A stretch of DNA of 31,179 nt, taken from IMG/VR virus record IMGVR_UViG_2579779052_000007, one strand, 5' to 3'. The notes under the pieces are model-generated. The model ran no database searches. It saw only the letters and a program-made list of their open reading frames with translations, and had not been told where the DNA came from. Positions 3,231 through 29,167 of the stretch are shown here, in pieces. Origin of the DNA: a virus (lineage: Duplodnaviria > Heunggongvirae > Uroviricota > Caudoviricetes). The first letter of the stretch is position 1. Each line of letters opens with the position of its first letter. A program made the translations under genes and the position numbers.

Positions 3231-4001
3231 ATGGAAACCGTATCTGACGCACTGAAAGCACTGAAAAAAGCCTCTTCACATGTGGTGGCAGCTCGCCTTG
3301 GAATCAGTCGTGAAGAGGCTGTCAACGAGCTGTGGGAACTCAAAAGAAAAGGCGTCGTTGATAAAACTGGTCACACCTGGTTTCTGGCTGGCGAAGGTGA
3401 ATCCCGGGTAACCGAAGAGCGGCCAGTAAAATCTGAAGCACAGGATATGCTGACCGGGGAGGTCGAACAAAAAGTTACCGCAGACATGATGATTGAGTTT
3501 ATCGGTCAGGATGGGGCTAAAACGTGTGAGGAACTGGCGGGGAAGTTCGGTGTCAGTACTCGCAAGGTTGCTTCCACGCTGGCGGTGGTAACCGCAACGG
3601 GGCGGCTGGCACGCGTTAATCAGAACGGTAAATTTCGTTACTGCATGCCGGGCGATAATTTACCAGCAGAGCCGAAAGCCGCGCTGGTAACGGAAAGTGA
3701 TGGTAAGGCCTTTCCTCAGCCAGCAGGTGCTGCGTTACCAGTCCGGGAAGCCGCAACACAGGAAGAAATTAAAACAGAAACTGTGGCGGACATTGTGCAG
3801 CCGTTGCCATCGTTTACCGAAACGCAAGCAGATGAGCTGATTTTTCCGTCCCTTCGCAGGGCAAACCTGGCGCTGCGCAGGGCGAAAAGTGATGTTCAGA
3901 AGTGGGAGCGAGTCTGCGCCGCGCTGCGGGAGCTGAACAAGCACCGGGATATTGTTCGACAGATTACTGATTCTTCCCGCCGTGTTGTATCGGAAAAGTG
4001 A
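3231..4001 (+). CDS. Hypothetical phage protein
   Basis: 256-aa ORF with a GGAGG RBS in the early operon; no motif recognised. Confidence 0.4.
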   Translation: METVSDALKALKKASSHVVAARLGISREEAVNELWELKRKGVVDKTGHTWFLAGEGESRVTEERPVKSEAQDMLTGEVEQKVTADMMIEFIGQDGAKTCEELAGKFGVSTRKVASTLAVVTATGRLARVNQNGKFRYCMPGDNLPAEPKAALVTESDGKAFPQPAGAALPVREAATQEEIKTETVADIVQPLPSFTETQADELIFPSLRRANLALRRAKSDVQKWERVCAALRELNKHRDIVRQITDSSRRVVSEK

Positions 4002-4016
4002 TTGCCGGAGGCGCTT

Positions 4017-4442
4017 ATGGCAAAAGTATTTACACAAGAAGAGCGGGAAAAAATTAAAGGGCAGGTTGTTGAACTTGTACGTCTGAGCGGTCGCGAGACG
4101 TTGCGGCAACTGGAAGCCAGGACAGGTGCGACAAGATATCTGATGAGTGTTCTCGCCAGAGAGCTGGTTGCCAGTGGCGATGTATACAACTCTGGTTACG
4201 GGTTATTCCCGTCTGAACAGGCGCGTAAGGACTGGCAAAATGCTCGCAAAAAACTCTCAAGGGCAAAGGTGAAGAAACCTGCAGTGGTTGATCCGGACCT
4301 TATCTGGTCGTTACCAGACGGCGAAATACGCCGCTACGACAGGCGCCTGAATATAATCTGTCGCGAGTGCCGGAAGAGCGAAGCTATGCAGCGTGTACTG
4401 GCATTTTATCAAGGAAATGTTAGGTATTTTAGACGTTACTAG
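4017..4442 (+). CDS. Hypothetical phage protein
   Basis: GGAGG RBS before the ATG at 4017 (the track ORF begins at an upstream TTG at 4002); basic C-terminus. Confidence 0.4.
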   Translation: MAKVFTQEEREKIKGQVVELVRLSGRETLRQLEARTGATRYLMSVLARELVASGDVYNSGYGLFPSEQARKDWQNARKKLSRAKVKKPAVVDPDLIWSLPDGEIRRYDRRLNIICRECRKSEAMQRVLAFYQGNVRYFRRY

Positions 4443-4595
4443 ATTAAAGAGCATTAGTTCAGATGTGAATTGACATTTTCATGGCGCAGGGTAGAGCCAG
4501 CGTGGTTGTCCGCTTTGCGTCAAAACCAGATATTACCAGATTTAGACATATATTCCCGATAGACCTGCTCTGATGCTACACTCTGTGCTATTTTC

Positions 4596-5282
4596 ATGAC
4601 CCCAATAAAAATATTTATGACTATTGCTGATTTCAAACGGCCTAAATTGGAGCTCCCAAACGGGGCAAACAAACTACTACTGCACTCTTGCTGTGCTCCA
4701 TGTTCCGGTGAAGTGATGGAGGCGCTTCAGGCCTCGGGAATCGACTACACCATCTTTTTCTACAACCCGAACATTCATCCTCAGAAAGAGTATTTAATTC
4801 GTAAGGATGAAAATATTCGCTTTGCTGAACAACACGGCGTGCCGTTTATCGATGCTGATTACGACACCGACAACTGGTTTGAACGTGCCAAAGGAATGGA
4901 ATGGGAGCCTGAGAGGGGGATCCGTTGTACCATGTGTTTTGACATGCGTTTTGAGCGGACAGCGTTGTACGCTGCTGAAAATGGTTTCAGTGTGATCAGC
5001 AGTTCACTGGGCATTTCACGCTGGAAAAATATGCAGCAGGTTAACGAGTGTGGGCGGCGAGCTGTTGCGCATTATCCGGGTATGGTGTACTGGGATTATA
5101 ACTGGCGCAAGCAGGGCGGCTCGTCCCGTATGATTGAAATCAGCAAGCGCGAAAAATTCTATCAGCAGGAATATTGTGGCTGTGTGTATTCTCTGCGCGA
5201 TACCAATCTACACCGCAAATCTCAGGGACGCCCTCTTATCAAAATTGGCCAACTCCACTACGGAAAAGAAGAGAAGGAGTGA
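4596..5282 (+). CDS. queH: Epoxyqueuosine reductase QueH-like protein (DUF208 family)
   Basis: N-terminal [11 protein letters not shown] and C-terminal EYCGCVYS cysteine motifs as remembered for QueH; about 228 aa; stand-alone gene with its own upstream intergenic region. Confidence 0.6.
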
Positions 5283-5519
5283 TTTTATGGATCACCTTTC
5301 TGATTGATTTCATATTGGCGAGGTGACGTGAGTTAAGTAGAATGGCTGCGGGTGCTTGAGGCTATCTGTCTCAGGCATGAACACTGAAAGGCAGATAGAG
5401 AAAAGCCCCAGTTAACATTTCGCGTCCTGCAAGACGCTTAACATTAATCTGAGGCCCAATCTATGTCTCACAAATGTAGGTTAGCCTCTTACGTGCCGAA
5501 AGGCAAGGGGAAGCAGGCT

Positions 5520-5675
5520 ATGAAGCAGCAAAAGGCGATGTTAATCGCCCTGATCGTCATCTGTTTAACCGTCATAGTGACGGCACTGGTAACGAGGAAA
5601 GACCTCTGCGAGGTACGACTCCGAACCGGCCAGACGGAGGTCGCTGTCTTCACAGCTTACGAACCTGAGGAGTAA
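5520..5675 (+). CDS. hokD: Hok/Gef-family type I toxin (HokD/RelF-like)
   Basis: 51-aa translation MKQQKAMLIALIVICLTVIVTALVTRKDLCEVRLRTGQTEVAVFTAYEPEE matches the Hok/Gef signature; an in-frame upstream start at 5463 gives a mok-like leader ORF. Confidence 0.75.
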   Translation: MKQQKAMLIALIVICLTVIVTALVTRKDLCEVRLRTGQTEVAVFTAYEPEE

Positions 5676-5743
5676 GAGACCTGGCGGGGGAGAAATCCCT
5701 CGCCACCTCTGATGTGTCAGGCATCCTCAACGCACCCGCACTT

Positions 5744-5771
5744 AACCCGCTTCGGCGGGTTTTGTTTTTTT
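5744..5771 (+). terminator. Rho-independent terminator after the hok gene
   Basis: AACCCGC-TTCG-GCGGGTT hairpin followed by a T-rich run. Confidence 0.6.
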
Positions 5772-5842
5772 CTGGCATTCTGGTTTACAATTCGCACGTC
5801 AGCCTGAACACCTGACACCTGCTGCGCCAGCAGAGAAAACAG

Positions 5843-6115
5843 ATGGCGCACAAAACCAAATTTCACAATTCTGATACCGACCTTGCCATCCGGCATGGGC
5901 GGCGTTCACACGCATTTAAAACCGACTGGTACCAACACCCACCATGTACTGAAGAACAGGCCGAATGGCTAATTCATAACTACCGCAGACGCGGATACGA
6001 GATTAAGAAAGCCCTCAGCCTCGATTATCGTCACTGGATAATCTCCGTCAGGCTTCCTTACTCTGAACGCCCACCGCGTCCGTCCCGCACATTCCAGCAA
6101 CGCATCTGGAGGTAA
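5843..6115 (+). CDS. Hypothetical small protein (in the position of rem in Qin)
   Basis: 90-aa ORF whose stop is 1 nt before the next gene's GTG; its 3' end supplies a GGAGG RBS. Confidence 0.35.
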   Translation: MAHKTKFHNSDTDLAIRHGRRSHAFKTDWYQHPPCTEEQAEWLIHNYRRRGYEIKKALSLDYRHWIISVRLPYSERPPRPSRTFQQRIWR

Positions 6116-6116
6116 C

Positions 6117-7172
6117 GTGCGGGTATTACTTCGACCTGTTCTGGTACCGGAACTCGGGCTGGTGATCGTTAAGCCGGGCCGTGAATCCATGCCGGTATTC
6201 CACAATACCCGGGTACTGGTGGAGCCGGAACCGAAAAGCATGCGTAATCTGCCGTCCGGGGTCGTTCCTGCCGTTCGCCAGCCGCTGGCGGAGGATAAAT
6301 CATTACTGCCATTTTTCAGCGACGAACGAGTGATTCGTGCTGCTGGTGGCGCTGGCGCATTGTCTGACTGGTTACTGCGCCATGTTAAATCCTGCCAGTG
6401 GCCACACGGCGATTATCACCACAGTGAAACCGTCATTCACCGTTATGGTACCGGCGCAATGGTGTTGTGCTGGCACTGCGACAACCAGCTGCGCGACCAG
6501 ACCTCCGAATCACTCGGGCAACTTGCTCACCAAAACCTGTCTGCATGGATGATTGACGTCATACGCCATGCAATGAATGGCTCGCAGGAACGGGAATTAT
6601 CGCTGGCTGAATTATCCTGGTGGGCGGTCCGCAATCAGGTGGCGGACGCGCTACCGGAAGCGGTATTACGTCGTTCGCTGGGGTTGCGTGCGGAAAAAAT
6701 CCGCTCAATGTACCGTGAAAGCGACATCGTACCGGGAGAGCAGACCGCCACCAGCATACTGAAGCAGCGCACAAAAAATCTTGCGCCGCTGCCTCACGCC
6801 CACCAGCAAACCCCGCCACAGGAAAAGACGGTGGTCAGCATTGCCGTTGATCCGGAGTCACCGGCTCAGTATCTCCAGCGCCAGAAATCACAACGGGAAG
6901 AGATGCCTGTATACACGCGTTGGGTAAAAACGCAGAAATGCATGACGTGTGGCAATCAGGCAGATGATCCGCATCACATCATTGGTCATGGACTGGGAGG
7001 GATGGGAACAAAGGCTGATGATTTGTTTGTTATTCCGCTGTGCCGTAAATGCCATAGCGAACTACACGCCGGGGTAAAAGATTTTGAAGAAAAACACGGC
7101 AGCCAGCTGTTGTTGCTGATTCGTTTTTTAATGCACGCGAGAAATTCGGGTGTTCTGAAGTGGAAAGCATAA
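6117..7172 (+). CDS. DUF968 (YdfU-like) nin-region protein with a C-terminal Cys/His cluster
   Basis: 351-aa ORF with GTG start; C-terminal CMTCGN...HHIIGH...CRKCHSELH; synteny hok-rem-ydfU-rusA-Q as in Qin. Confidence 0.5.
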   Translation: MRVLLRPVLVPELGLVIVKPGRESMPVFHNTRVLVEPEPKSMRNLPSGVVPAVRQPLAEDKSLLPFFSDERVIRAAGGAGALSDWLLRHVKSCQWPHGDYHHSETVIHRYGTGAMVLCWHCDNQLRDQTSESLGQLAHQNLSAWMIDVIRHAMNGSQERELSLAELSWWAVRNQVADALPEAVLRRSLGLRAEKIRSMYRESDIVPGEQTATSILKQRTKNLAPLPHAHQQTPPQEKTVVSIAVDPESPAQYLQRQKSQREEMPVYTRWVKTQKCMTCGNQADDPHHIIGHGLGGMGTKADDLFVIPLCRKCHSELHAGVKDFEEKHGSQLLLLIRFLMHARNSGVLKWKA

Positions 7173-7538
7173 ATGACTGAACGCATAGAATTTGTTTTGC
7201 CTTACCCGCCAACGGTGAACACTTACTGGCGACGTCGTGGCAGCACATATTTTGTATCAAAAGTCGGTGAGCGTTATCGCCGTGATGTGGCGCTTATTGT
7301 TCGCCAGCAGCAACTGAAATTAAACCTGTCCGGAAGGCCGGCAATAGAAATTATTGCAGAGCCACCGGATAAGCGTCGTCGTGACCTGGACAATATCCTG
7401 AAGGCACCACTGGATGTACTGACGCATGCGGGGCTGCTCATAGACGACGAGCAGTTTGATGAAATTAATATTGTGCGCGGTCAGCTTGTTCCTGGTGGGC
7501 GGTTGGGGATAAAAATCACAGAACTGGAGTACGCATGA
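7173..7538 (+). CDS. rusA: Holliday junction resolvase RusA
   Basis: 121 aa with RusA-like motifs (RRRDLDN, catalytic Asp region, GGRL); positioned just before the Q-like gene. Confidence 0.8.
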   Translation: MTERIEFVLPYPPTVNTYWRRRGSTYFVSKVGERYRRDVALIVRQQQLKLNLSGRPAIEIIAEPPDKRRRDLDNILKAPLDVLTHAGLLIDDEQFDEINIVRGQLVPGGRLGIKITELEYA

Positions 7539-8224
7539 ATAACCAGTATTTACAGTTTGTTCGTGAGCAACTCATGATTGCCACCGCCGATTTGAGTGGA
7601 TCAACAAAAGGGCAGCTTGAGGCCTGGCAGGAGAATGCCATGTTTGATACAGGGCGTTACAGGCGTAAAAAAATCCGGTACCGCGATGAAGTGACTGGAA
7701 AAATGATAACGCGGGATAATCCACCAATCCCGGGAAAGCAATCGCTGGCGAAGGGGGTGTCAATTCCTCTCGTCAGTCCGGTTGAGTTTTCGACATCATC
7801 GTGGCGGCGGGCTGTTCTGTCTCTTGAAGAACATCATAAAGCCTGGTTGTTGTGGTGTTACAGCGGGAGTATTTGTTGGGAATATCAGATCGCGATAACG
7901 CAGTGGGTGTGGAATGAATTTAAAACCCGGTACGGCACCAGAAAAATTGCAGGGAAAACGCAGGAGCGCGTGAAGAAGTTGATCTGGCTGGCGGCACAGG
8001 ATGTCAGAGGATGGATTACCGGGTGTGAGGTCTACCAGAGACAGGAGCTTGCCAGACTGTGTGGAGTTAAGCCTGATAACTGGAGCCATAATTATGCGAA
8101 CTACTGGCGTGAGATGTGCGATATTTTTAAGAGTCTCGATAGAGAATCTGTGATTTGCACCGTGAAAATAAGAGCGCAACAAAAAGCGACTTTTTCACGA
8201 CGAGATATTGCAAAAGTCAATTAA
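7535..8224 (+). CDS. Putative late antiterminator Q-like protein
   Basis: 229-aa ORF overlapping the rusA stop (ATGA); position after rusA and before a short terminated leader; not lambda-Q-like by eye, so family unconfirmed. Confidence 0.45.
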   Translation: MNNQYLQFVREQLMIATADLSGSTKGQLEAWQENAMFDTGRYRRKKIRYRDEVTGKMITRDNPPIPGKQSLAKGVSIPLVSPVEFSTSSWRRAVLSLEEHHKAWLLWCYSGSICWEYQIAITQWVWNEFKTRYGTRKIAGKTQERVKKLIWLAAQDVRGWITGCEVYQRQELARLCGVKPDNWSHNYANYWREMCDIFKSLDRESVICTVKIRAQQKATFSRRDIAKVN

Positions 8225-8292
8225 ATAGCGTACGTTTCGTATAAATCTGATATTTTGCCGATTTTGTACGCGATGGCAAAGTAAGAAAAAAA

Positions 8293-8315
8293 CTGCCGTC
8301 AGGCGGTTTTTTTTT
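8293..8315 (+). terminator. Rho-independent terminator about 70 nt after Q (tR'-like)
   Basis: CTGCC-GTCA-GGCGG hairpin followed by T9. Confidence 0.45.
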
Positions 8316-8437
8316 ATGCCCAAAATCGCGTCAGTACAGTAAACACGCTGGTGGTTGCGAATACGGGTCTTTCAGCTTGCTGGCTTTTTCGACAAGAGTT
8401 ATTGGTATGTCACGTTAACCGGAAAAAGGAAAAAGAC

Positions 8438-8635
8438 ATGCTAAAACAGCAGGATATGACAGAAACCGCCAGAGTGGTGTTTAATGAATTAAGCGTTACC
8501 GAACCGGCGACAGTCGGGGAGATAGCGCAGAATACTTACCTTTCACGCGAACGCTGCCAGTTAATACTGACCCAGCTGGTTATGGCGGGTCTGGCAGACT
8601 ATCAGTTCGGTTGTTACAGACGCCTTCAGTCCTGA
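8438..8635 (+). CDS. Hypothetical small protein
   Basis: 65-aa ORF from an internal ATG of the track ORF 8351-8635; followed by a hairpin plus T-run at about 8620-8648. Confidence 0.3.
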   Translation: MLKQQDMTETARVVFNELSVTEPATVGEIAQNTYLSRERCQLILTQLVMAGLADYQFGCYRRLQS

Positions 8636-8785
8636 AGGCTTTTTTATTTGTGGTAAATGGGCGGCTGGTGGGTGTTAGGGGCACCCACCAGCCATCTGCT
8701 CATGCGTTGGGTTCACAAGCAAACCTCAGGCCCACTGCTTTGCGCAAAAGCAGAATGAGCCTATCAGAGACAGGCTTAATGATCC

Positions 8786-9835
8786 ATGCTTAATACTGTA
8801 AAAATATCCAGTTGTGAGTTAATCAACGCCGACTGCCTGGAATTTATCCGGTCGTTACCCGAAAATTCTGTTGACCTGATAGTCACGGACCCGCCGTACT
8901 TTAAAGTGAAGCCTGAGGGCTGGGATAACCAGTGGAAGGGCGACGATGATTACCTGAAGTGGCTGGACCAGTGTCTGGCGCAGTTCTGGCGGGTGCTGAA
9001 ACCTGTCGGAAGTCTTTACCTGTTCTGTGGTCATCGCCTGGCATCTGATATCGAAATCATGATGCGTGAACGCTTCAGTGTGCTGAACCATATTATCTGG
9101 GCGAAGCCGTCCGGACGCTGGAACGGATGCAACAAGGAAAGCCTGCGGGCGTATTTCCCCGCCACAGAGCGCATTCTGTTCGCGGAACATTATCAGGGGC
9201 CGTATCGTCCGAAAGATGCCGGGTATGCGGCGAAGGGCAGTGCACTGAAACAGCATGTGATGGCCCCGCTGATTTCTTACTTTCGTGATGCGCGCGCTGC
9301 CCTGGGGATAACGGCAAAACAGATTGCAGATGCCACAGGAAAGAAAAACATGGTGTCGCACTGGTTCAGTGCCAGTCAGTGGCAGCTACCGAACGAAAGC
9401 GATTATCTGAAATTACAGTCGCTGTTTGCCCGGGTGGCAGAAGAGAAACATCAGCGCGGTGAACTGGAAAAGCCCCACCACCAGCTGGTGGATACGTATA
9501 CGTCACTGAACCGGCAGTATGTGGAGCTGCAGAGTGAATATAAGCATCTGCGGCGGTATTTTGGTGTGACGGCGCAGGTGCCGTACACGGATGTGTGGAC
9601 ACATAAACCGGTGCAGTTCTATCCCGGGAAACATCCGTGCGAAAAACCGGCAGAAATGCTGCAGCAGATAATCAGCGCAAGCAGTCGTCCGGGTGACCTG
9701 GTTGCAGATTTTTTTATGGGCTCAGGTTCAACGGTAAAAGCGGCACTGGCGCTTGGGCGTCGTGCGATTGGCGTTGAACTGGAGACCGGACGTTTTGAGC
9801 AGACAGTCAGGGAAGTTCAGGATTTAATCGTTTGA
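8786..9835 (+). CDS. Orphan DNA methyltransferase (N6-adenine/N4-cytosine family, DPPY motif)
   Basis: DPPY catalytic motif near the N-terminus (VTDPPYF) and a C-terminal AdoMet-binding-like FFMGSGST; no adjacent restriction endonuclease. Confidence 0.8.
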   Translation: MLNTVKISSCELINADCLEFIRSLPENSVDLIVTDPPYFKVKPEGWDNQWKGDDDYLKWLDQCLAQFWRVLKPVGSLYLFCGHRLASDIEIMMRERFSVLNHIIWAKPSGRWNGCNKESLRAYFPATERILFAEHYQGPYRPKDAGYAAKGSALKQHVMAPLISYFRDARAALGITAKQIADATGKKNMVSHWFSASQWQLPNESDYLKLQSLFARVAEEKHQRGELEKPHHQLVDTYTSLNRQYVELQSEYKHLRRYFGVTAQVPYTDVWTHKPVQFYPGKHPCEKPAEMLQQIISASSRPGDLVADFFMGSGSTVKAALALGRRAIGVELETGRFEQTVREVQDLIV

Positions 9836-9884
9836 AACGGATGAGATTGCAGAATTAATTACGCACCATTATTATTCTGCTCCC

Positions 9885-10880: not shown

Positions 10881-11108
10881 GTGGGCAAAAAAAGCCCGCG
10901 CTGGGAGACGCGGGCGGCAAGGAATAAACAATAAAACGTGAAGTAATATTTCAGCTGGCGAATAATATCCGACAGTAATCACTCTGCGCAATAGCGCGGC
11001 CTTTTTCGTATTGCGGGCTGTTGTCTCTCTTCTGCCATTGTCCTGTAACTTCCGGACTTCAGCCCGCTCCTCATTTTACTCACAATATTATCCCGGCCGG
11101 GAGGATTC

Positions 11109-12962
11109 ATGGCATTTAAACACTATGATGTTGTCAGGGCGGCGTCGCCGTCAGATCTTGCGGAAAAGCTGACACATAAACTGAAAGAGGGCTGGCAGCC
11201 GTTTGGTAGTCCGGTGGCCATAACCCCTTATACCCTGATGCAGGCGATTGCAGCAGAAGGTGATGTGGTCGTCAGTGGTGCAACTGAGCCGGAGTGGTAC
11301 TACGTCATCGTACTGGCCGGGCAGTCCAATGCCATGGCTTACGGTGAAGGGCTTCCGCTTCCGGATTCATACGATGCGCCCCATCCGCGCATTAAGCAAC
11401 TGGCCCGTCGTAACACAGTGACTCCCGGTGGTGAAGTATGCGTATTTAACGACATCATTCCTGCTGACCATTGTCTGCATGATGTTCAGGATATGAGTAC
11501 GATTAACCATCCCCGGGCTGACCTGAGCAAAGGGCAGTACGGCTGTGTCGGACAGGGCTTACATATTGCCAAAAAACTGCTTCCGTATATCCCTAATAAT
11601 GCGGGGATCCTGCTGGTACCATGCTGTCGTGGTGGTTCGGCATTCACCCAGGGCGCGGAGGGGACATTCAGTGCGGACACGGGGGCCAGCCAGGATTCGG
11701 CACGCTGGGGTGTGGGTAAACCGTTATATCAGGATCTGCTTTTCCGCACGAAGGCAGCATTGCAGAAAAACCCGAAAAACGTTTTGCTGGCGATATGCTG
11801 GATGCAGGGGGAATTCGATATGACGAATGCCAGTTACGCCCAGCAGCCAGCAGCATTTCTTGCAATGGTACAGCAGTTCCGTGCTGACCTTACCGGGCTG
11901 GCGGCGCAGTGCCATGGCGGCAGTGCTGCAGTTGTACCGTGGATTTGTGGCGACACGACGTATTACTGGCAAAACACATACGGCACACAGTATGACTCCG
12001 TCTACGGCGCGTACAAAAACAGGGAGAGCGACAACGTTTTCTTTGTGCCGTTCATGACCGACGGTAACGGCAACAACACGCCCACCAACTTACCGGCAGA
12101 AGACCCGGATATTGCTGATGCAGGTTATTACGGCGCGCAATCCCGTAGTAATGGTAATTGGGTATCGTCAAATCGTCCGACACATTTCAGTTCATGGGCG
12201 CGCAGGGGCATTATTTCGGATCGCCTGGCAACCGCTATTCTGAACGCAGTTGGTCGAACCAGCGCCTTCATCAGCGGTACCGCACCGGAGATTAAACCCT
12301 CGCCCGGCGGCGACACTCCATCGGGGCCGTCTGATGGTGACACATCCGTTCGTACAGTCTCCCTGCTGCCGACAGCCGGAGAGGCTGCTGCGCAGGGCTG
12401 GACCATCACCGGCGGCAGTGTTGCGCTGGAAGATGGTGTGTTTAAGGTTACCAAGCAGAGCAATAAAACCTGGTCCCTGATGCATCCGGTGGATGACGCA
12501 GTCTCCCTGCTGACACGGGGTGGCAGACTGAGCTGTAAGTTTCGACTGTCAGGCGCACTGACCAACAACCAGTTCGGTCTGGGAATTTATCTGTATACCG
12601 ATGTAGCGTTACCTGACGTCGTGGCGATGACCGGGACTGGTAACCCGTTCCTGATGTCGTTCTTCACCCAGACCACAGACGGCAAACTGAATCTGATGCA
12701 TCACAAGAAAGCAGGAAACACAAAGTTGGGCGAGTTCGGGAATTACAGTAACGACTGGCAGACGCTGGAGCTGGTGTTCACCGCCAGCAGTGCCACGGTT
12801 ACTCCGAAACTGAATGGAGTGGCTGGCCCGGCATTCCAGGTCATAAAAGACAGTCTGACACTGGGGCTGAATGCACTGACGCTGACGGATATTACCAAAA
12901 ATGCAACGTATGGCGTTGAGATAGAAAGTCTGGTGCTGGAAATAAATAGTCCTGCAGCGTAA
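11109..12962 (+). CDS. nanS-p: NanS-p-type sialate O-acetylesterase (SGNH/SASA domain with C-terminal carbohydrate-binding-like region)
   Basis: 617 aa; GGAGG RBS; VIVLAGQSNAMAY motif of the SGNH/SASA esterase family; sits downstream of the phage tRNA cluster as the esterase gene does in Stx phages. Confidence 0.75.
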   Translation: MAFKHYDVVRAASPSDLAEKLTHKLKEGWQPFGSPVAITPYTLMQAIAAEGDVVVSGATEPEWYYVIVLAGQSNAMAYGEGLPLPDSYDAPHPRIKQLARRNTVTPGGEVCVFNDIIPADHCLHDVQDMSTINHPRADLSKGQYGCVGQGLHIAKKLLPYIPNNAGILLVPCCRGGSAFTQGAEGTFSADTGASQDSARWGVGKPLYQDLLFRTKAALQKNPKNVLLAICWMQGEFDMTNASYAQQPAAFLAMVQQFRADLTGLAAQCHGGSAAVVPWICGDTTYYWQNTYGTQYDSVYGAYKNRESDNVFFVPFMTDGNGNNTPTNLPAEDPDIADAGYYGAQSRSNGNWVSSNRPTHFSSWARRGIISDRLATAILNAVGRTSAFISGTAPEIKPSPGGDTPSGPSDGDTSVRTVSLLPTAGEAAAQGWTITGGSVALEDGVFKVTKQSNKTWSLMHPVDDAVSLLTRGGRLSCKFRLSGALTNNQFGLGIYLYTDVALPDVVAMTGTGNPFLMSFFTQTTDGKLNLMHHKKAGNTKLGEFGNYSNDWQTLELVFTASSATVTPKLNGVAGPAFQVIKDSLTLGLNALTLTDITKNATYGVEIESLVLEINSPAA

Positions 12963-16431: not shown

Positions 16432-18564
16432 ATGAGTACCACAACACGAAAATTTAAAACCGTTATCACCGATACAGGTGCAAAAAAATTAGCTCAGGCA
16501 GCCGCGCCAGATGGTAAGCCTGTCCGCCTGACTCATATGGCCGTGGGCGACGGTGGCGGCGCGTTGCCCACACCAGACAGTAAGCAGACCCGTCTGGTGC
16601 ATGAGGTGTGGCGACACACTGTTAATCGCGTCATCCTGGACGCAACACATCAGAACCGCATTATTGCGGAGCTGGTTATTCCTCCAGAAACGGGCGGATT
16701 CTGGATCCGGGAAATTGGTGTGTTTGATGAGCACGGCGATTTAATCGCGGTGGGCAATACTGCCGAAAGTTACAAGCCAGCCGTTGCCGAAGGGTCCGGA
16801 CGTGCACAAACATTTCGCACCATTCTGACCGTATCCAGCACTGCCACTGTGGCGCTTACCGTGGATAACACCATGGTGATGGCCACAGTGGATTACGTGG
16901 ATAACAAACTGAAAGAGCATGAACAGTCACGATGTCACCCGGATGCCTCGCTGACCGCAAAAGGCTTTGTTCAACTCAGTAGCGCCACTAACAGCGATTC
17001 TGAAACGCTGGCTGCAACGCCGAAAGCGGTTAAGGTCGCGTATGATCTTGCTAACGGAAAATATACAGCGCAGGATGCCACAACAGCGCGAAAAGGCCTT
17101 GTCCAGCTTAGTAGTGCAACCAACAGTACATCTGAAACGCTGGCGGCAACATCAAATGCAGTAAAAGCTGCCTATGACAATGCTGAAAAACGTCTGCAGA
17201 AAGCTAAGAATGGTGAGGATATCTCTGATAAAGACACCTTTACGAAAAATATCGGTGCCTGCCGTGCATATAGTGCAGAGCTGAATATTGGTGGAGATAG
17301 TGAAGCATGGACAACTGCGCAGTTGATTTTTTGGCTAGAGAGTCAGGGGGCATTTAACCATCCTTACTGGATGTGCAAAGGCTCATGGGCTTATGCAAAT
17401 AATAAGGTCATTACAGATACAGGTTGCGGAAGTATTTGTCTTGCAGGTGCTGTTGTGGAAGTTATTGGCACCCGCGGCGCAATGACCATACGCATTACCA
17501 CACCGAGTACATCCAGCGGTGAAGGCATCCCTAATGCTCAATTTACTTATATTAATCATGGTGATGCTTATGCTCCTGGCTGGCGAAGGGACTATAACTC
17601 CAGGAATAAGCCAACAGCATCAGAGATCGGGGCGTTACCGTCAGATGGGACAGCAGTATCGTCAGTTAATCTGGCTTCAAAAGGTCGGCTGACCGCCCTG
17701 ACAGATAATATGCAGGGGGCCACAGGTCTGGAGTTATACGAGGCGTATAACAACGGATATCCAACAACGTATGGAAATATCATTCACCTGAAAGGGATGA
17801 CAGCCGTTGGCGAAGGCGAATTACTCATCGGCTGGAGTGGTATAAGCGGTGCTCATGCTCCGGCATTTATTCGTTCACGACGGGATACGACCGACGCAAA
17901 CTGGTCGCCGTGGGCGCAGCTTTACACCTCGGCTCATCCTCCTGAAGAGTTTTATCCAGTCGGTGCACCGATTCCGTGGCCATCAGATACCGTTCCGTCT
18001 GGTTATGCCCTGATGCAGGGGCAGACTTTTGACAAATCTGCATACCCGAAACTTGCAGTCGCTTATCCGTCAGGCGTTATTCCTGATATGCGTGGCTGGA
18101 CGATTAAGGGCAAGCCCGGCAGTGGTCGTGCCGTATTGTCTCAGGAACAGGACGGCATTAAATCGCACACCCACAGCGCCAGCGCATCCAGTACGGATTT
18201 GGGGACGAAAACCACATCGTCGTTTGATTACGGTACTAAAACGACCAGTTCATTTGATTACGGCACAAAAACTACGAATAGCGCTGGAAATCATTCACAC
18301 AATATACCTGTTGGTCACACTGGCGCGGGGAATGGTGTATCAGCCGGTTATAACGCTGCGTTAGGTACTGGTACCACGTCGAGCGCAGGCGAGCATGCTC
18401 ACAATGTATATATCGGTGCCCATAACCACACTATCGGCATTGGTGCTCATGCCCATTCTGTCATTATTGGTCCCCACGGACACACCATCACCGTTAACGC
18501 TACGGGTAACGAAGAAAACACCGTAAAAAACATCGCATTTAACTATATTGTGAGGCTTGCATAA
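16432..18564 (+). CDS. H: Tail fibre protein, P2 gpH-like
   Basis: 710 aa; conserved gpH-type N-terminus; repeat-rich, histidine-rich C-terminal receptor-binding region. Confidence 0.8.
18201..18282 (+). repeat. Tandem 30-nt coding repeats within the tail fibre gene ([10 protein letters not shown], about 2.7 copies)
   Basis: GGGGACGAAAACCACATCGTCGTTTGATTAC / GGTACTAAAACGACCAGTTCATTTGATTAC / GGCACAAAAACTACGAATAGC. Confidence 0.55.
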
Positions 18565-19142
18565 TGACATTCAGAATGAGTGAACACTCACGGACCATAA
18601 AAATTTATAATCTACTGACCGGAACCAATGAGTTTATTGGTGAAGGTGATGCATACATTCCACCTCATACAGGTCTGCCTGCAAACAGTACCGATATTGC
18701 CCCGCCAGATATTCCGGCTGGCTTCGTGGCCGTTTTCAACAGTGATGAGGCATCGTGGCATCTCGTTGAAGACCATCGGGGTAAAACGGTTTATGACGTG
18801 GCATCAGGGGACTCGTTATTTATTTCTGAACTCGGTCCATTACCGGAAAATGTTACCTGGTTGTCGCCGTATGGAGAGTATCAGAAGTGGAACGGCACAT
18901 CCTGGGTGAAAGATGCAGAAGCAGAAAAACTGTTTCGGATAAGGGAGGCGGAAGAAACAAAAAACAGCCTGATGCAGGTAGCCAGCGAGCATATTGCGCC
19001 ACTTCAGGATGCCGTAGATTTGGATATTGCAACGGAGGAAGAGGCATCGTTACTGGCTGCATGGAAGACATACCGGGTATTGTTGAATCGTGTTAATACA
19101 GCGGTAGCAGCGGATGTTGAGTGGCCAGTCGCCCCACAATAA
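18564..19142 (+). CDS. G: Tail fibre assembly protein, P2 gpG-like
   Basis: 192 aa; start overlaps the H stop (ATAATG); position immediately after the fibre gene. Confidence 0.8.
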
Positions 19143-19185
19143 AGAGAAAAAGCCATCGATTGAAATATAGATGGCTTTATGTACT

Positions 19186-19758
19186 CTATTTATACAATAC
19201 AACACCGCTCTTTTTAGTTATATATGTGCAGTTCGATGGTATATCTTTATTTATAAAAGACATTGCACCTATTTTTACATTATCCCCAATTTTACGTGAT
19301 AATCCAATGATGCAACAATTAGCTCCGATATCAACGTTACTACCAATTTTTACTCTTGAACCAGGCATGTCACCATCTATCTGTCCAATGGTAGTATTCT
19401 GTCGTAACACCAGATTTTCACCAGCATCAACAGCAAAATGAACAACAATTCCAGCATGATGGGGAATTGTTAACCCTTTTCCAATATTTGCGCCCAATCC
19501 AATTTCACAACCAAATTTGTTAATTATTTTACTGTTTAACTTTTTGGCTGCTTTCTTATGTAATTTATTACCATTAATATACATTTCGTTAGCCAACCGC
19601 CACCAGAAAAGGAAATTCCGGTTACGCTGTTTTTTCTCTCTTAAAAGCCTCCAGATATCCATACGTTTCCGCCGAATTACTTCATATTTCCAGAAGTTTT
19701 TTAAATTAGTAGAGTCCCCAAATAAAACAAAGTGAATTGCCATTAAGTAAGACAGCAC
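19186..19758 (-). CDS. Hexapeptide-repeat (left-handed beta-helix) acetyltransferase moron
   Basis: AT-rich gene on the opposite strand; repeated G.N..IG hexapeptide pattern; GTG start at 19758 with AAGGAG RBS preferred over the upstream track ATG. Confidence 0.7.
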   Translation of the reverse strand: MLSYLMAIHFVLFGDSTNLKNFWKYEVIRRKRMDIWRLLREKKQRNRNFLFWWRLANEMYINGNKLHKKAAKKLNSKIINKFGCEIGLGANIGKGLTIPHHAGIVVHFAVDAGENLVLRQNTTIGQIDGDMPGSRVKIGSNVDIGANCCIIGLSRKIGDNVKIGAMSFINKDIPSNCTYITKKSGVVLYK

Positions 19759-19914
19759 GATAATCTCCTTAATTATTATTTCAGACCACACATATTATAA
19801 GGTTAAGAGATTATAAAATCCTGTTGTTTGTTATTCAAAAACAATTTTCTGAGAAGGACATACAACAGCAAGTCGCCAGTCACCTTCATCAGGAAATTGG
19901 CGACATACGTTAAA

Positions 19915-20409
19915 TCAGAGCAGCCCCTTAACTGAGCTGGTCGCGCTATTAAGGGATGATGTCACCTTATCTTTGAAGCCGGACAACATATCGCTGAACG
20001 ATGAGGATTGCAGGCGCTCCCGCAAATCCTCATCACAGCGTTCAAGAGTCAGTGAAAATTCTATCTTTTTCGCCTTACCGTAGCGATCAAACTCGGAGCG
20101 GGTCGTATTCGTTTCGGTCAGGACATACATGCCGTAAATCTGCCCGACGCCATCAATCAGAGGCCAGGGCCGTCCTGTATACGCCTGCGTGGTCAGCAGA
20201 GACAGCGACACTTCGCCACCTGTAATTTCAGGATAAAGCACACCAGAAAGAACGATGCGATCATCACCTGCACCGATATACTGCCAGCTTGCTGAACGGT
20301 TAACGCGTTCATTTTTCACATGCCGCCAGCTTTTGTTTTGCTGTAACTGCTGATGCGGCAGCGTGCGCAGCTCAAAAACAAACATGCCATAGATCATCAT
20401 CATGGCCAT
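19915..20409 (-). CDS. U: Tail protein, P2 gpU-like
   Basis: 164 aa; immediately downstream of the tape-measure gene on the minus strand. Confidence 0.75.
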   Translation of the reverse strand: MAMMMIYGMFVFELRTLPHQQLQQNKSWRHVKNERVNRSASWQYIGAGDDRIVLSGVLYPEITGGEVSLSLLTTQAYTGRPWPLIDGVGQIYGMYVLTETNTTRSEFDRYGKAKKIEFSLTLERCDEDLRERLQSSSFSDMLSGFKDKVTSSLNSATSSVKGLL

Positions 20410-26748: not shown

Positions 26749-27162
26749 GCAAATTAGATGTATTGACTCAAACCAGAACTGACACACTCACAGCACAGTG
26801 CCAGACCCAATCTGGCAGCCCGCTTTGTGCCTAGAGCAGGTGTTGCTTATGTAACAGTTAATCCACGGATAGTGGTCATGAATGCTGGTTGAAGTTGTAT
26901 TGCCATGAGTGGTCAATTAGGGACTCACTTATTATCGCGTGCTCACCATTGATGGGTAAGATCATGCATTTCGGCTACTGTACTTCGCGAATCCTCCGCA
27001 CACAGGCAACACCTGATTTAAGAACAGAGGGAGATGATGACGCAAGGAAGATTTATTATCGTGCATGTGGCAGATGATCTTTTAGCTGCCGGAGTGATAA
27101 ATTACACCTATTTTCGATAAGTGTTTTTGTTATAGAACATTAATTTCGTGGGAAACAATAAA

Positions 27163-28287
27163 GTGAAATTAGGAAGAAATGATAAGTGCTGGTGTAATTC
27201 AGGACTTAAGTATAAAAAGTGCCATCTTGGTCGAGATCGTGAAACTCCGGTATCCAAAGCCGAGGCACTGAAATTTTCAAAGTCTCTCTCGCAGAGAAAG
27301 GCATGTTATGCGCCAGCATCCATGCACGAAGATTGTGATAAACGCATCGTTCAGGCGCATACGATATCTAAGAGCAGTAGCCTTAAGGCGATCGCCGACT
27401 CCAGCAATCACGTCATGGGGGTGATAATGAACTTAGCAAGCCTGATGAGAAACAACGGAAAATGGCTTCCCGAGAAGATCGGTATCAATCAGGCATCCAC
27501 TTTTACAGGATTTTGTGCAGTTCATGACAGAATCTTATTTTCATGCCTAGAGAACGAAAAATTTACAGGCACGGACGAGCAGTGCTTTGCCTTAATGTTT
27601 CGTTCATTGTCTAAAGAAATTTATGCCAAAGAAGGGGGAGTGCTATCTTCTGATTTTGCTAAAAATGCCGATAAAGGAAAGCTACAAGTTGAACAGTATT
27701 ATATTCAGAAATTAATCGACCAGCACCAAAGTGGCTTAAATGCAGCAATAATTGAATTAAATAATCTTAAAACTAGCCTCGACCGCATCCTACTTAGCAG
27801 GCAATTTTCAGAAATTGAAAGTGTTATCTTCACTTTTGCAGAGCCTTTACCAATTGTAGTTTCGTCAATTCTTTCACCGGAGAGGGATTTCGATGGGACC
27901 AAAATTCAGGATTTGAGCGATCTTACAGTGTCGGCGGAACAAGTATGTTTCAATGCTTTTTCCTGCGGAGGTAAGGGATATGTAGTGTTCAGTTGGCTGA
28001 GAACTTCAACAATTATCAGACGTTTTATACGGACACTAATTAAGATCCCAGCTAACAGGATGTTCAATACCCTTCTGTATTTTTTCTTCACAAAGGCCGA
28101 AAATACATATTCATCCCCTGAGTGGTGGGACAGGCTCAGTGATAAACAGCGAGAGAATATCGGCAACATGATTATGTCAGGGGTTGAATTTTTTGGCATA
28201 CCTACATCACAGGTTGATCATTCCGTTGATTATAACGCCGCTGCACTTGAAGAGATAACATGCAGCAACAACGAAATTTGCAGCTGA
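27163..28287 (+). CDS. SEC-C-motif protein of unknown function (AT-rich moron between D and ogr)
   Basis: N-terminal KLGRNDKCWCNSGLKYKKCH resembles the SecA C-terminal zinc motif; start must be a GTG (27163, or 27148 as in the track) because the first in-frame ATG lies after the motif. Confidence 0.5.
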   Translation: MKLGRNDKCWCNSGLKYKKCHLGRDRETPVSKAEALKFSKSLSQRKACYAPASMHEDCDKRIVQAHTISKSSSLKAIADSSNHVMGVIMNLASLMRNNGKWLPEKIGINQASTFTGFCAVHDRILFSCLENEKFTGTDEQCFALMFRSLSKEIYAKEGGVLSSDFAKNADKGKLQVEQYYIQKLIDQHQSGLNAAIIELNNLKTSLDRILLSRQFSEIESVIFTFAEPLPIVVSSILSPERDFDGTKIQDLSDLTVSAEQVCFNAFSCGGKGYVVFSWLRTSTIIRRFIRTLIKIPANRMFNTLLYFFFTKAENTYSSPEWWDRLSDKQRENIGNMIMSGVEFFGIPTSQVDHSVDYNAAALEEITCSNNEICS

Positions 28288-28837: not shown

Positions 28838-29026
28838 CAGGCAGAATTGCCGGAGTAACAAAAAAACGATAGATTACCCGCGGGTGCCTTTCGGCTGATG
28901 GTCGGAGGAATACCCGAAGGCCGGATGTGGAAAGGCCCCGGAAAACATTTCTGTTTAACCGAGGCCCTAACATATCTACCTTAAGCAAGTGATAGGTTAG
29001 CGCCTCTCCAACAAAGGAGCAAGCGC

Positions 29027-29167
29027 TATGTCGCAAAAATCGCTTACAGCCATCACGTTCTGCGTGACGGTAATCCTCATCATCTGGATGCTACACGGTT
29101 CGCTGTGTGAAATACGGATGAGCTTCTGGGGAGCGGAGTTTGCGGCGTTCTTACAGTGTAAGCAGTA
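29027..29167 (+). CDS. Hok-family type I toxin (HokA-like); below the ORF-track size cutoff
   Basis: 46-aa translation MSQKSLTAITFCVTVILIIWMLHGSLCEIRMSFWGAEFAAFLQCKQ has a single transmembrane helix and the SLCE...AAFL signature; AGGAG RBS 8 nt upstream. Confidence 0.6.

Follow-up and report, generated by a model that had tools for sequence, protein, structure and literature searches.

A P88-like Escherichia coli prophage carries a WcaB-like hexapeptide acetyltransferase gene beside its tail-fibre cassette: a candidate for modification of an envelope glycan

The stretch of DNA analysed here in its entirety (hereafter the window; IMG/VR record IMGVR_UViG_2579779052_000007, 31,179 nucleotides) is a P2-like prophage of the P88 (Xuanwuvirus) type from E. 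coli, adjoining tRNA-Leu/Cys/Gly and pgsA. Our subject is a gene for a predicted acetyltransferase located at 19143-19914, i.e., in the gap between the stop codon of the tail-fibre-assembly gene tfa (18564-19142, plus strand) and that of a gpU-like tail gene (19915-20409, minus strand). The gap holds a single real open reading frame (ORF), on the minus strand. The mechanical ORF call extends over 19186-19791; the true start is, however, placed at GTG 19758, because the alleles of P1-like phages have ATG at the equivalent codon. The coding sequence thus occupies 19186-19758 (minus strand, TAG stop at 19188-19186) as a 573-bp ORF for a protein of 190 amino acids (aa), RefSeq WP_000954196.1. Its assignment as a left-handed beta-helix protein of the serine acetyltransferase (SAT)/WcaB type draws on the ORF list, RefSeq, NCBIfam, PHROG, PDB, AlphaFold and dN/dS. 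Six alleles gave dN/dS values of 0.07-0.26, and no disrupted copy was present among those compared; by this measure the gene is real and under purifying selection.

The gene appears to be equipped with expression signals of its own. The sequence itself shows a ribosome-binding site, AAGGAG (19766-19771, minus strand), 7 nt ahead of the GTG, and a consensus scan revealed a sigma-70-type promoter-like site, TTGAAT-17 nt-TATAAT (19810-19838, minus strand), with 10 of 12 matches. The copy in P1-like phages possesses a different, also strong promoter-like site (TTGACA-18-TAAAAT). Directly 3' of the gpU stop, a hairpin GTCGCCA...TGGCGAC followed by a U-rich stretch (19872-19904, minus strand; RNA fold -21.2 kcal/mol, z -4.8) likely serves as the terminator of the tail operon and would insulate the acetyltransferase gene from it. 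On the other side, the hairpin AAAGCCATC-12 nt-GATGGCTTT, followed by UUUUUCUCUUU (19141-19178, minus strand; RNA fold -14.4 kcal/mol, z -4.6), is, by its sequence, the intrinsic terminator of the acetyltransferase gene, situated in the 43 nt that separate this gene from the convergent tfa.

An initial sequence-only reading of the window had described an AT-rich, oppositely oriented gene with a strong ribosome-binding site, encoding a left-handed beta-helix acetyltransferase and occupying, as a moron beside the tail-fibre genes, the slot after G in which P2-like phages carry variable accessory genes. All of this holds, with one refinement on orientation. The GC content of the span 19143-19914 is 34.1%, compared with 51.2% for the whole window; no other 772-bp segment of the 31 kb is lower, and only 0.03% are as low. 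The gene is transcribed opposite to the tail-fibre gene H and tfa, and yet in the same direction as the U-T-E-FII-FI block upstream, because FI-FII-E-T-U is inverted relative to P2 in this phage type. Its own (predicted) promoter-like site, the flanking hairpins, the deviant GC content and presence or absence in the slot behind gpU genes that are at least 99% identical together mark it as a moron, a cargo gene with its own expression signals. Phase-variable repeats in the 5' coding region, which the same reading had proposed to look for, were absent: Tandem Repeats Finder detected no tandem repeats in 19000-20000, even at a minimum score of 30.

The family assignment of the protein is clear at the level of the superfamily, whereas every curated cut-off is missed. 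In NCBIfam it matched the EpsC, cysE and WcaB models at E 5e-21 to 2e-14, with 75 bits for EpsC (cut-off 150), 61.5 bits for cysE TIGR01172 (cut-off 210.65), and 53.3 and 54.2 bits for the WcaB models TIGR04016 and PRK10191 (cut-offs 194.65 and 196, respectively); the model for E. coli-type CysE, PRK11132, gave 36.7 bits against a cut-off of 397. Pfam Hexapep (23.6 bits) and Hexapep_2 (17.6 bits) both remained under their cut-off of 27. The Maa, LacA and xenobiotic-acetyltransferase families were weak (21-28 bits) or absent, as compared with 54-75 bits for the SAT/WcaB/EpsC branch. A strong match was obtained with PHROG 2154 (E 1.7e-87, 292.7 bits, profile positions 3-181 of 185), a family annotated as 'unknown function'. 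The AlphaFold model, built with 98 homologues, reached a pLDDT of 96.3 and consists of five N-terminal helices followed by a beta-helix of short beta-strands from residue 84 to the C-terminus; its top Foldseek hits are serine acetyltransferase structures, with TM ~0.73. Serine acetyltransferases also matched in the PDB sequence search, at E 1e-12. That serine acetyltransferases head the structural matches simply reflects that all top hits of the PDB search were such proteins, no WcaB-type chain being among them. Since the NCBIfam hits, the PDB sequence hits and the AlphaFold/Foldseek match all agree, membership of the left-handed beta-helix acyltransferase superfamily is secure on sequence and modelling grounds, despite the sub-threshold Pfam scores.

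Active-site equivalences were derived with hmmalign by aligning CysE and WcaB to the profile of 98 family members; the result agrees with pairwise alignments by HMMER and BLAST. Glu85 and His100 are the counterparts of the catalytic pair Asp143/His158 of CysE; all 98 members have Asp or Glu in the former column, and 97 of them have His in the latter. The protein is therefore, as far as these residues indicate, very probably an active acetyltransferase. In structures of serine acetyltransferases, Asp92, Asp157, Arg192 and His193 (numbering of E. coli CysE) are the serine- or cysteine-binding residues, through which the amino and carboxylate groups of serine are held. In the window protein the column of Asp157 contains Pro; across the 98 members it varies (Pro, Ala, Gly and others), with no Asp among the eight commonest residues; the columns of Arg192 and His193 are variable, and the region of Asp92 is absent. 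Moreover, only 83 residues precede the beta-helix, as compared with ~140 in CysE, and the C-terminus reads ...VVLYK instead of ...GDGI, the Ile-ending tail by which CysE binds CysK. Variability within the beta-helix peaks at residues 126-137, which correspond to the acceptor-binding loop of CysE. The serine-binding positions and the divergent termini make it very improbable that the protein is a serine acetyltransferase, and the database name 'serine O-acetyltransferase' is a homology overcall that the predicted active site does not support.

Among the K-12 relatives compared, the best match was WcaB (35% identity over 109 aa, 57.8 bits, versus 42 bits for CysE). WcaB falls into the same branch of short SAT-like enzymes, is comparable in length (162 aa, versus 190 aa for the window protein), and shares the active-site pattern, with Glu in place of CysE Asp143, His-His in place of Asp157-His158 and neither Arg192 nor His193. 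The window protein nevertheless scores below the WcaB cut-off (~195 bits), has a longer, sequence-unrelated N-terminal helical region, and is encoded between tfa and gpU instead of in a wca cluster. It is, so far as the motifs tell, WcaB-like at the level of the active site and not an orthologue. With CysE it has in common the overall fold (N-terminal helical domain plus beta-helix), the catalytic Asp/Glu-His pair and the database name, but not the first ~60-100 residues, the serine-binding residues, the CysK-binding tail or any cysE synteny; a housekeeping cysE, which the sequence-only reading had named as the case that would speak against it, is not what we see. HMM classification, which that reading had called for with CysE, WcaF and NeuO in mind, places the protein in the SAT/EpsC/WcaB branch of the hexapeptide superfamily and not near NeuO. 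We are highly confident that the locus encodes an active acetyltransferase moron with a substrate other than serine.

The slot between G and FI of P2 has been described as 'moron position 2' (PMC3573123). Its variability in P88-like prophages was surveyed in 80 IMG/VR contigs with a gpU at least 99% identical to that of the window. An invertase with alternative fibre genes occupied the slot in 38 contigs, an acetyltransferase in 24 (19 with the window type and five with the allele seen in phage 613R2, which has just 39% identity to it) and a GT9 (heptosyltransferase-family) glycosyltransferase in five; the slot was empty in another five, and the remaining eight contigs end too early to tell. 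P88 itself has tfa', an alternative fibre tip and a DNA invertase there. P88 homology (97%) restarts in the window at 19909, 6 nt beyond the gpU stop, as determined by blastn and the P88 annotation, which sets the right-hand junction of the slot (19909-20409, minus strand). The GT9 gene itself (e.g., 3695-4873 of the contig of E. coli VG35A2) lies in the tfa-gpU slot of sister P88-like prophages, encodes 392-412 aa and is co-directional with tfa; its Pfam match is above the cut-off but weak (26.9 bits), and it belongs to PHROG 36326, which has no known function.

The left-hand side of the slot is a mosaic. The tfa gene is of the lambda Tfa type (Pfam Caudo_TAP, 135.9 bits; ~89% nucleotide identity to lambda tfa), and the tail-fibre gene H (16432-18564) is composed of three parts. 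According to blastn, 16464-17184 represents the constant part of the P88 fibre gene (94%) and 17207-17598 an alternative fibre segment of P88 in inverted orientation (88%), whereas 17951-19750 (plus strand) matches, at 94%, the P1-like phage-plasmids JL22 and Ro157c2. This last block, comprising the fibre tip (the C-terminus of the tail fibre), tfa and the whole acetyltransferase ORF, is taken to be a co-transferred host-range cassette, because the three elements match the P1-like phage-plasmids together. The arrangement of H, with a P88 constant region, a stretch from the opposite strand of the invertible P88 segment and a P1-like tip, looks like the relic of an invertible host-range switch that was frozen in one orientation and lost its invertase. 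The fibre C-terminus also contains, at 18202-18276, three tandem GTKTT(S/N)S(FDY) copies, followed by several His-x-His motifs, both typical of tips of the lambda Stf/T4 gp37 type. The acetyltransferase cassette thus moves with tail-fibre and tfa genes between P2-like and P1-like phages, and is polymorphic, in both allele and presence, within one and the same P88-like slot.

The 573-bp ORF is present in 530 of 5426 complete E. coli genomes. Identity is 100% in strains named O26, O103 and O111, ~97.6% in O157:H7 (EC4115, 86-24 and others), 99.3% in O104:H4 and 97.9% in strain 55989; alleles with 94-95% identity reside on P1-like plasmids of 93-100 kb. In O157:H7 MB9-1 the prophage is a remnant, with an IS3 element in place of the head and most tail genes, a truncated tfa and a frameshifted tape-measure gene; the acetyltransferase ORF is intact. 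Across all public proteins, a small core of 81 clusters (50% identity, E <1e-30) grades into thousands of SAT-like proteins; members of the family are distributed across Enterobacterales, with a few in Pseudomonas.

Gene neighbourhoods were compared for 99 loci from phage records, IMG/VR and assemblies, in which the acetyltransferases form 21 clusters at 80% identity. A convergent tfa lies at most 400 bp downstream in 69 of the 99 loci, and in 11 of the 21 allele clusters; one further cluster has a convergent tfa 1.4-1.6 kb downstream, and another has tfa upstream on the same strand. The arrangement persists in alleles of only 35-46% identity (Hafnia phage yong2, E. coli 613R2 and Citrobacter phiNP, whose copy appears in the literature as no more than an entry among fitness genes, PMC6456863). 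The divergence of the acetyltransferase shows only a weak correlation with that of tfa (rho 0.26); in 613R2, for example, tfa is 77% identical to that of the window and the acetyltransferase 38%. Alleles therefore seem to be reshuffled at a conserved junction and not to co-evolve with tfa, and we claim repeated co-location only. In the P1-like JL22 the acetyltransferase gene is located inside the Cin-invertible C segment (4395-9858; flanked by inverted repeats of 602 bp that are 99% identical), where it follows U'-Sv' in the same direction, and inversion could therefore switch read-in from the late fibre operon. Two lineages combine the gene with a glycosyltransferase: in Xenorhabdus prophages a 46%-identical allele lies, beside tail genes, 59 nt upstream of and on the same strand as a GT25 'LPS biosynthesis' (LPS, lipopolysaccharide) glycosyltransferase (123 bits), and in a Salmonella-type cluster a 53%-identical allele is followed on the same strand by a PHROG-1962 glycosyltransferase. 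A 50%-identical homologue was found on plasmids of the enteropathogenic E. coli (EPEC) adherence-factor type, just 3' of the bfp pilus operon and among IS66 elements, with no phage genes near. A tail-fibre/tfa requirement was considered and rejected, as the lambda-type tfa is widespread without the gene.

What might such an enzyme do? We propose that the moron encodes an acetyl-CoA-dependent, cytoplasmic O-acetyltransferase of the SAT/WcaB branch, which would be made in the lysogen from its own promoter. As for WcaB, the acceptor would be a hydroxyl group of a sugar in an envelope glycan still being made on the cytoplasmic side of the inner membrane, with colanic acid, enterobacterial common antigen, lipid-linked LPS core and the common undecaprenyl-diphosphate-GlcNAc (Und-PP-GlcNAc) stage as candidates. 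The lysogen would gain from the altered surface, most plausibly through reduced adsorption of phages that use this glycan. Taken as a whole, an autonomously expressed cargo enzyme of this kind that modifies an envelope glycan in the lysogen is a proposition whose chances we see as evenly balanced. For the acceptor alone, the similarity to WcaB and the three glycosyltransferase associations (GT25, PHROG-1962 and GT9) suggest an envelope glycan about as strongly as they leave room for something else. Phage exclusion as the pay-off is more tentative; like altered host recognition, the other conceivable benefit, it is speculative and drawn from the examples of Oac, Gtr, NeuO and NeaT.

These analogues differ from the window gene in instructive ways. 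Oac/GtrC-type enzymes of Sf6 and P22-like phages bring about lysogenic conversion by acetylating a surface glycan that serves as phage receptor. They are membrane proteins of the acyltransferase-3 type, acting at or beyond the membrane on specific O-units, whereas the window enzyme is predicted to be a soluble cytoplasmic beta-helix protein and is found unchanged across several O-serogroups. NeuO, which acetylates the K1 capsule and is encoded by phage CUS-3, is likewise a beta-helix O-acetyltransferase made in the lysogen, and its gene also neighbours that of a receptor-binding protein. The sequence-only reading had drawn on NeuO as its example; the comparison stands at the superfamily level and goes no further, as NeuO is of the LacA/Maa/WbbJ-type branch, aligns with the window protein at 23.5 bits over 42 aa, and carries in its gene 19 heptanucleotide repeats at the 5' end for phase variation, of which the window gene has none. 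In the CUS-3 record neuO (1589-2400) lies directly 3' of the gene for the endosialidase tailspike, whose substrate NeuO modifies; it has no annotated coding sequence because the 19 repeats leave it out of frame in that record, and its sequence was reconstructed for the comparison. NeaT, from a P2-like prophage of CFT073, is the closest positional counterpart: neaT is found in the same 'moron position 2' after G, in opposite orientation, and is very AT-rich, sporadic and of high allelic diversity (PMC3573123). Its product has an unrelated fold, that of an integral-membrane Acyl_transf_3 protein (PF01757), and neaT has an infection phenotype, whereas the window gene is not known to have one; the NeaT acyltransferase affects host interactions (PMC3573123).

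The nature of the glycan is constrained by the distribution of alleles. The same early reading had suggested possible acetylation of capsule or O-antigen, for serotype conversion or superinfection exclusion. A glycan acceptor remains plausible; serotype conversion is unlikely, given that identical or 97-99% identical alleles occur in strains named O26, O103, O111, O157:H7 and O104:H4, the O-units of which differ. Identical alleles in serogroups with unrelated O-units make a serogroup-specific O-unit an unlikely acceptor and therefore favour a structure common to all of them. The LPS core of the carrier serogroups is of the R3 type.

Several observations weigh against the envelope-glycan proposal and its link to the fibre genes. 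The published O-units of O157, O26 and O111 and the E. coli core types are not known to contain an extra O-acetyl group, which leaves the proposal without a matching chemical phenotype among those known. Glycosyltransferases are linked to the gene through neighbourhood in three lineages only, and the link to GT9 indicates shared real estate, not shared function. The lambda-type tfa partner exists in lambdoid phages that have no acetyltransferase, and the lambda-type fibre class uses OmpC as well as LPS. Divergence of acetyltransferase and tfa is, as described above, only weakly correlated, and many alleles sit away from fibre genes, at prophage ends beside hok or integrase genes, or on EPEC bfp plasmids. 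Finally, searches of the literature by protein accession, for prophage hexapeptide acetyltransferases and for P2 hotspots retrieved no functional study of any family member, and the authors of the JL22 paper, who noted the 'serine acetyltransferase' (sacF), stated that the reason for its presence is unknown (PMC9603915).

Among the other explanations, a target other than a glycan survives best, although we regard it as rather unlikely. The enzyme would then act on a small molecule (in detoxification of sugars or xenobiotics, as do Maa, LacA and Vat), on a metabolite or signal, or on a protein, with a benefit in defence, counter-defence or fitness and an unchanged surface. The hypervariable acceptor loop would be compatible with this, as would the lack of a known surface O-acetyl phenotype in the carrier serogroups and the location in a known accessory hotspot, in which some alleles keep company with defence or addiction cargo: an abortive-infection gene in ev040, HicAB in phiNP, hok, and MazE/PIN. 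However, no family in the anti-phage defence models of PADLOC-DB v2 matched the acetyltransferase at E up to 1, the gene is solitary and without the partner genes typical of defence systems, the scores for Maa, LacA and the xenobiotic families fall far behind those of the SAT/WcaB/EpsC branch, and the pairing with glycosyltransferases in lineages such as Xenorhabdus and the Salmonella-type cluster points the other way.

A more specific version of the glycan proposal, which we consider improbable, would make the acetyltransferase the exclusion half of a mobile cassette of fibre tip, chaperone and receptor-masking enzyme: the glycan bound by the co-transferred fibre (e.g., LPS core) would be acetylated, and lysogens and debris would no longer adsorb phages carrying that fibre. 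Such a coupling would explain why diverse alleles stay at tfa across P2-like, P1-like and other myoviruses, why the gene is located inside the Cin-invertible segment of P1-like plasmids, and why it alternates with LPS-type glycosyltransferases in the slot.

That the protein is after all a genuine serine O-acetyltransferase, i.e., an auxiliary metabolic enzyme that raises the supply of O-acetylserine and cysteine or affects CysB signalling, is very improbable. The name in RefSeq and phage records, the best PDB and Foldseek matches, which are all serine acetyltransferases, and the conserved catalytic pair are what one would expect of it; the low scores with both CysE models, the non-conserved Asp157, Arg192 and His193 positions, the missing Asp92 region, the short N-terminal domain, the different C-terminal tail and the closer relationship to WcaB are not. 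We attach even less probability to a role in lytic growth, in which the enzyme would target the tail fibre or virion of the phage itself, or debris that carries the receptor, for maturation of the fibre or to prevent re-adsorption of progeny. The gene adjoins tfa in about half of the allele clusters (11 of 21) and travels with fibre tip and tfa between P2-like and P1-like phages, one orientation of the JL22 segment could make it part of the late fibre operon, the window copy points the same way as the late U..FI operon, and the fibre C-terminus is Ser/Thr-rich; but it has its own promoter-like site and terminators on both sides, is missing in most phages that share this type of tfa (lambda among them) and in about two-thirds of the P88-like contigs surveyed whose sequence continues beyond gpU, is intact in the tail-less O157:H7 remnant, and has many alleles away from fibre genes. 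Equally improbable is a functionless hitch-hiker kept only because an often-exchanged tail-fibre cassette is 44 bp away, since the tight physical linkage to tfa and the lack of a known phenotype are countered by the low dN/dS without disrupted copies, by catalytic residues retained in 97-98 of 98 members down to ~40% identity, by two alleles only 39% identical that share one slot, and by retention in degraded prophages.

Some further features of the prophage deserve mention. A gene for a 625-aa DUF6645 protein (11085-12962; GC content 54%, phage-like) is inserted in the late operon between the lysis and tail-completion genes, which is unusual for P2-like phages. Downstream (3') of the replication endonuclease gene, 902-2177 encodes ParM and a partitioning/stability protein, segregation cargo of the plasmid type in an integrated P2-like prophage. 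A second AT-rich insertion (27148-28287; 41% GC), between gene D and ogr, encodes a YecA-family protein, and a hok/gef toxin gene (29025-29165) is situated close to the prophage end.

The gene is an uncharacterised member of a familiar class, that of phage-borne acetyltransferases of the lysogenic-conversion type. It is carried by about one in ten complete E. coli genomes, including those of the main Shiga-toxin serogroups and the O104:H4 outbreak lineage, and bears the label 'serine O-acetyltransferase' everywhere, so that a correction of the annotation is useful in its own right; this would also be the practical gain if the protein turned out to be a minor detoxifying enzyme. The recurrent coupling to the tail-fibre cassette offers a concrete hypothesis, namely that receptor masking may be tied to the receptor-binding module. 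If an envelope glycan is indeed modified, the enzyme would represent an unrecognised lysogenic-conversion factor in very well-studied pathogens, with a bearing on their phage susceptibility, on phage therapy and typing, and possibly on host recognition.

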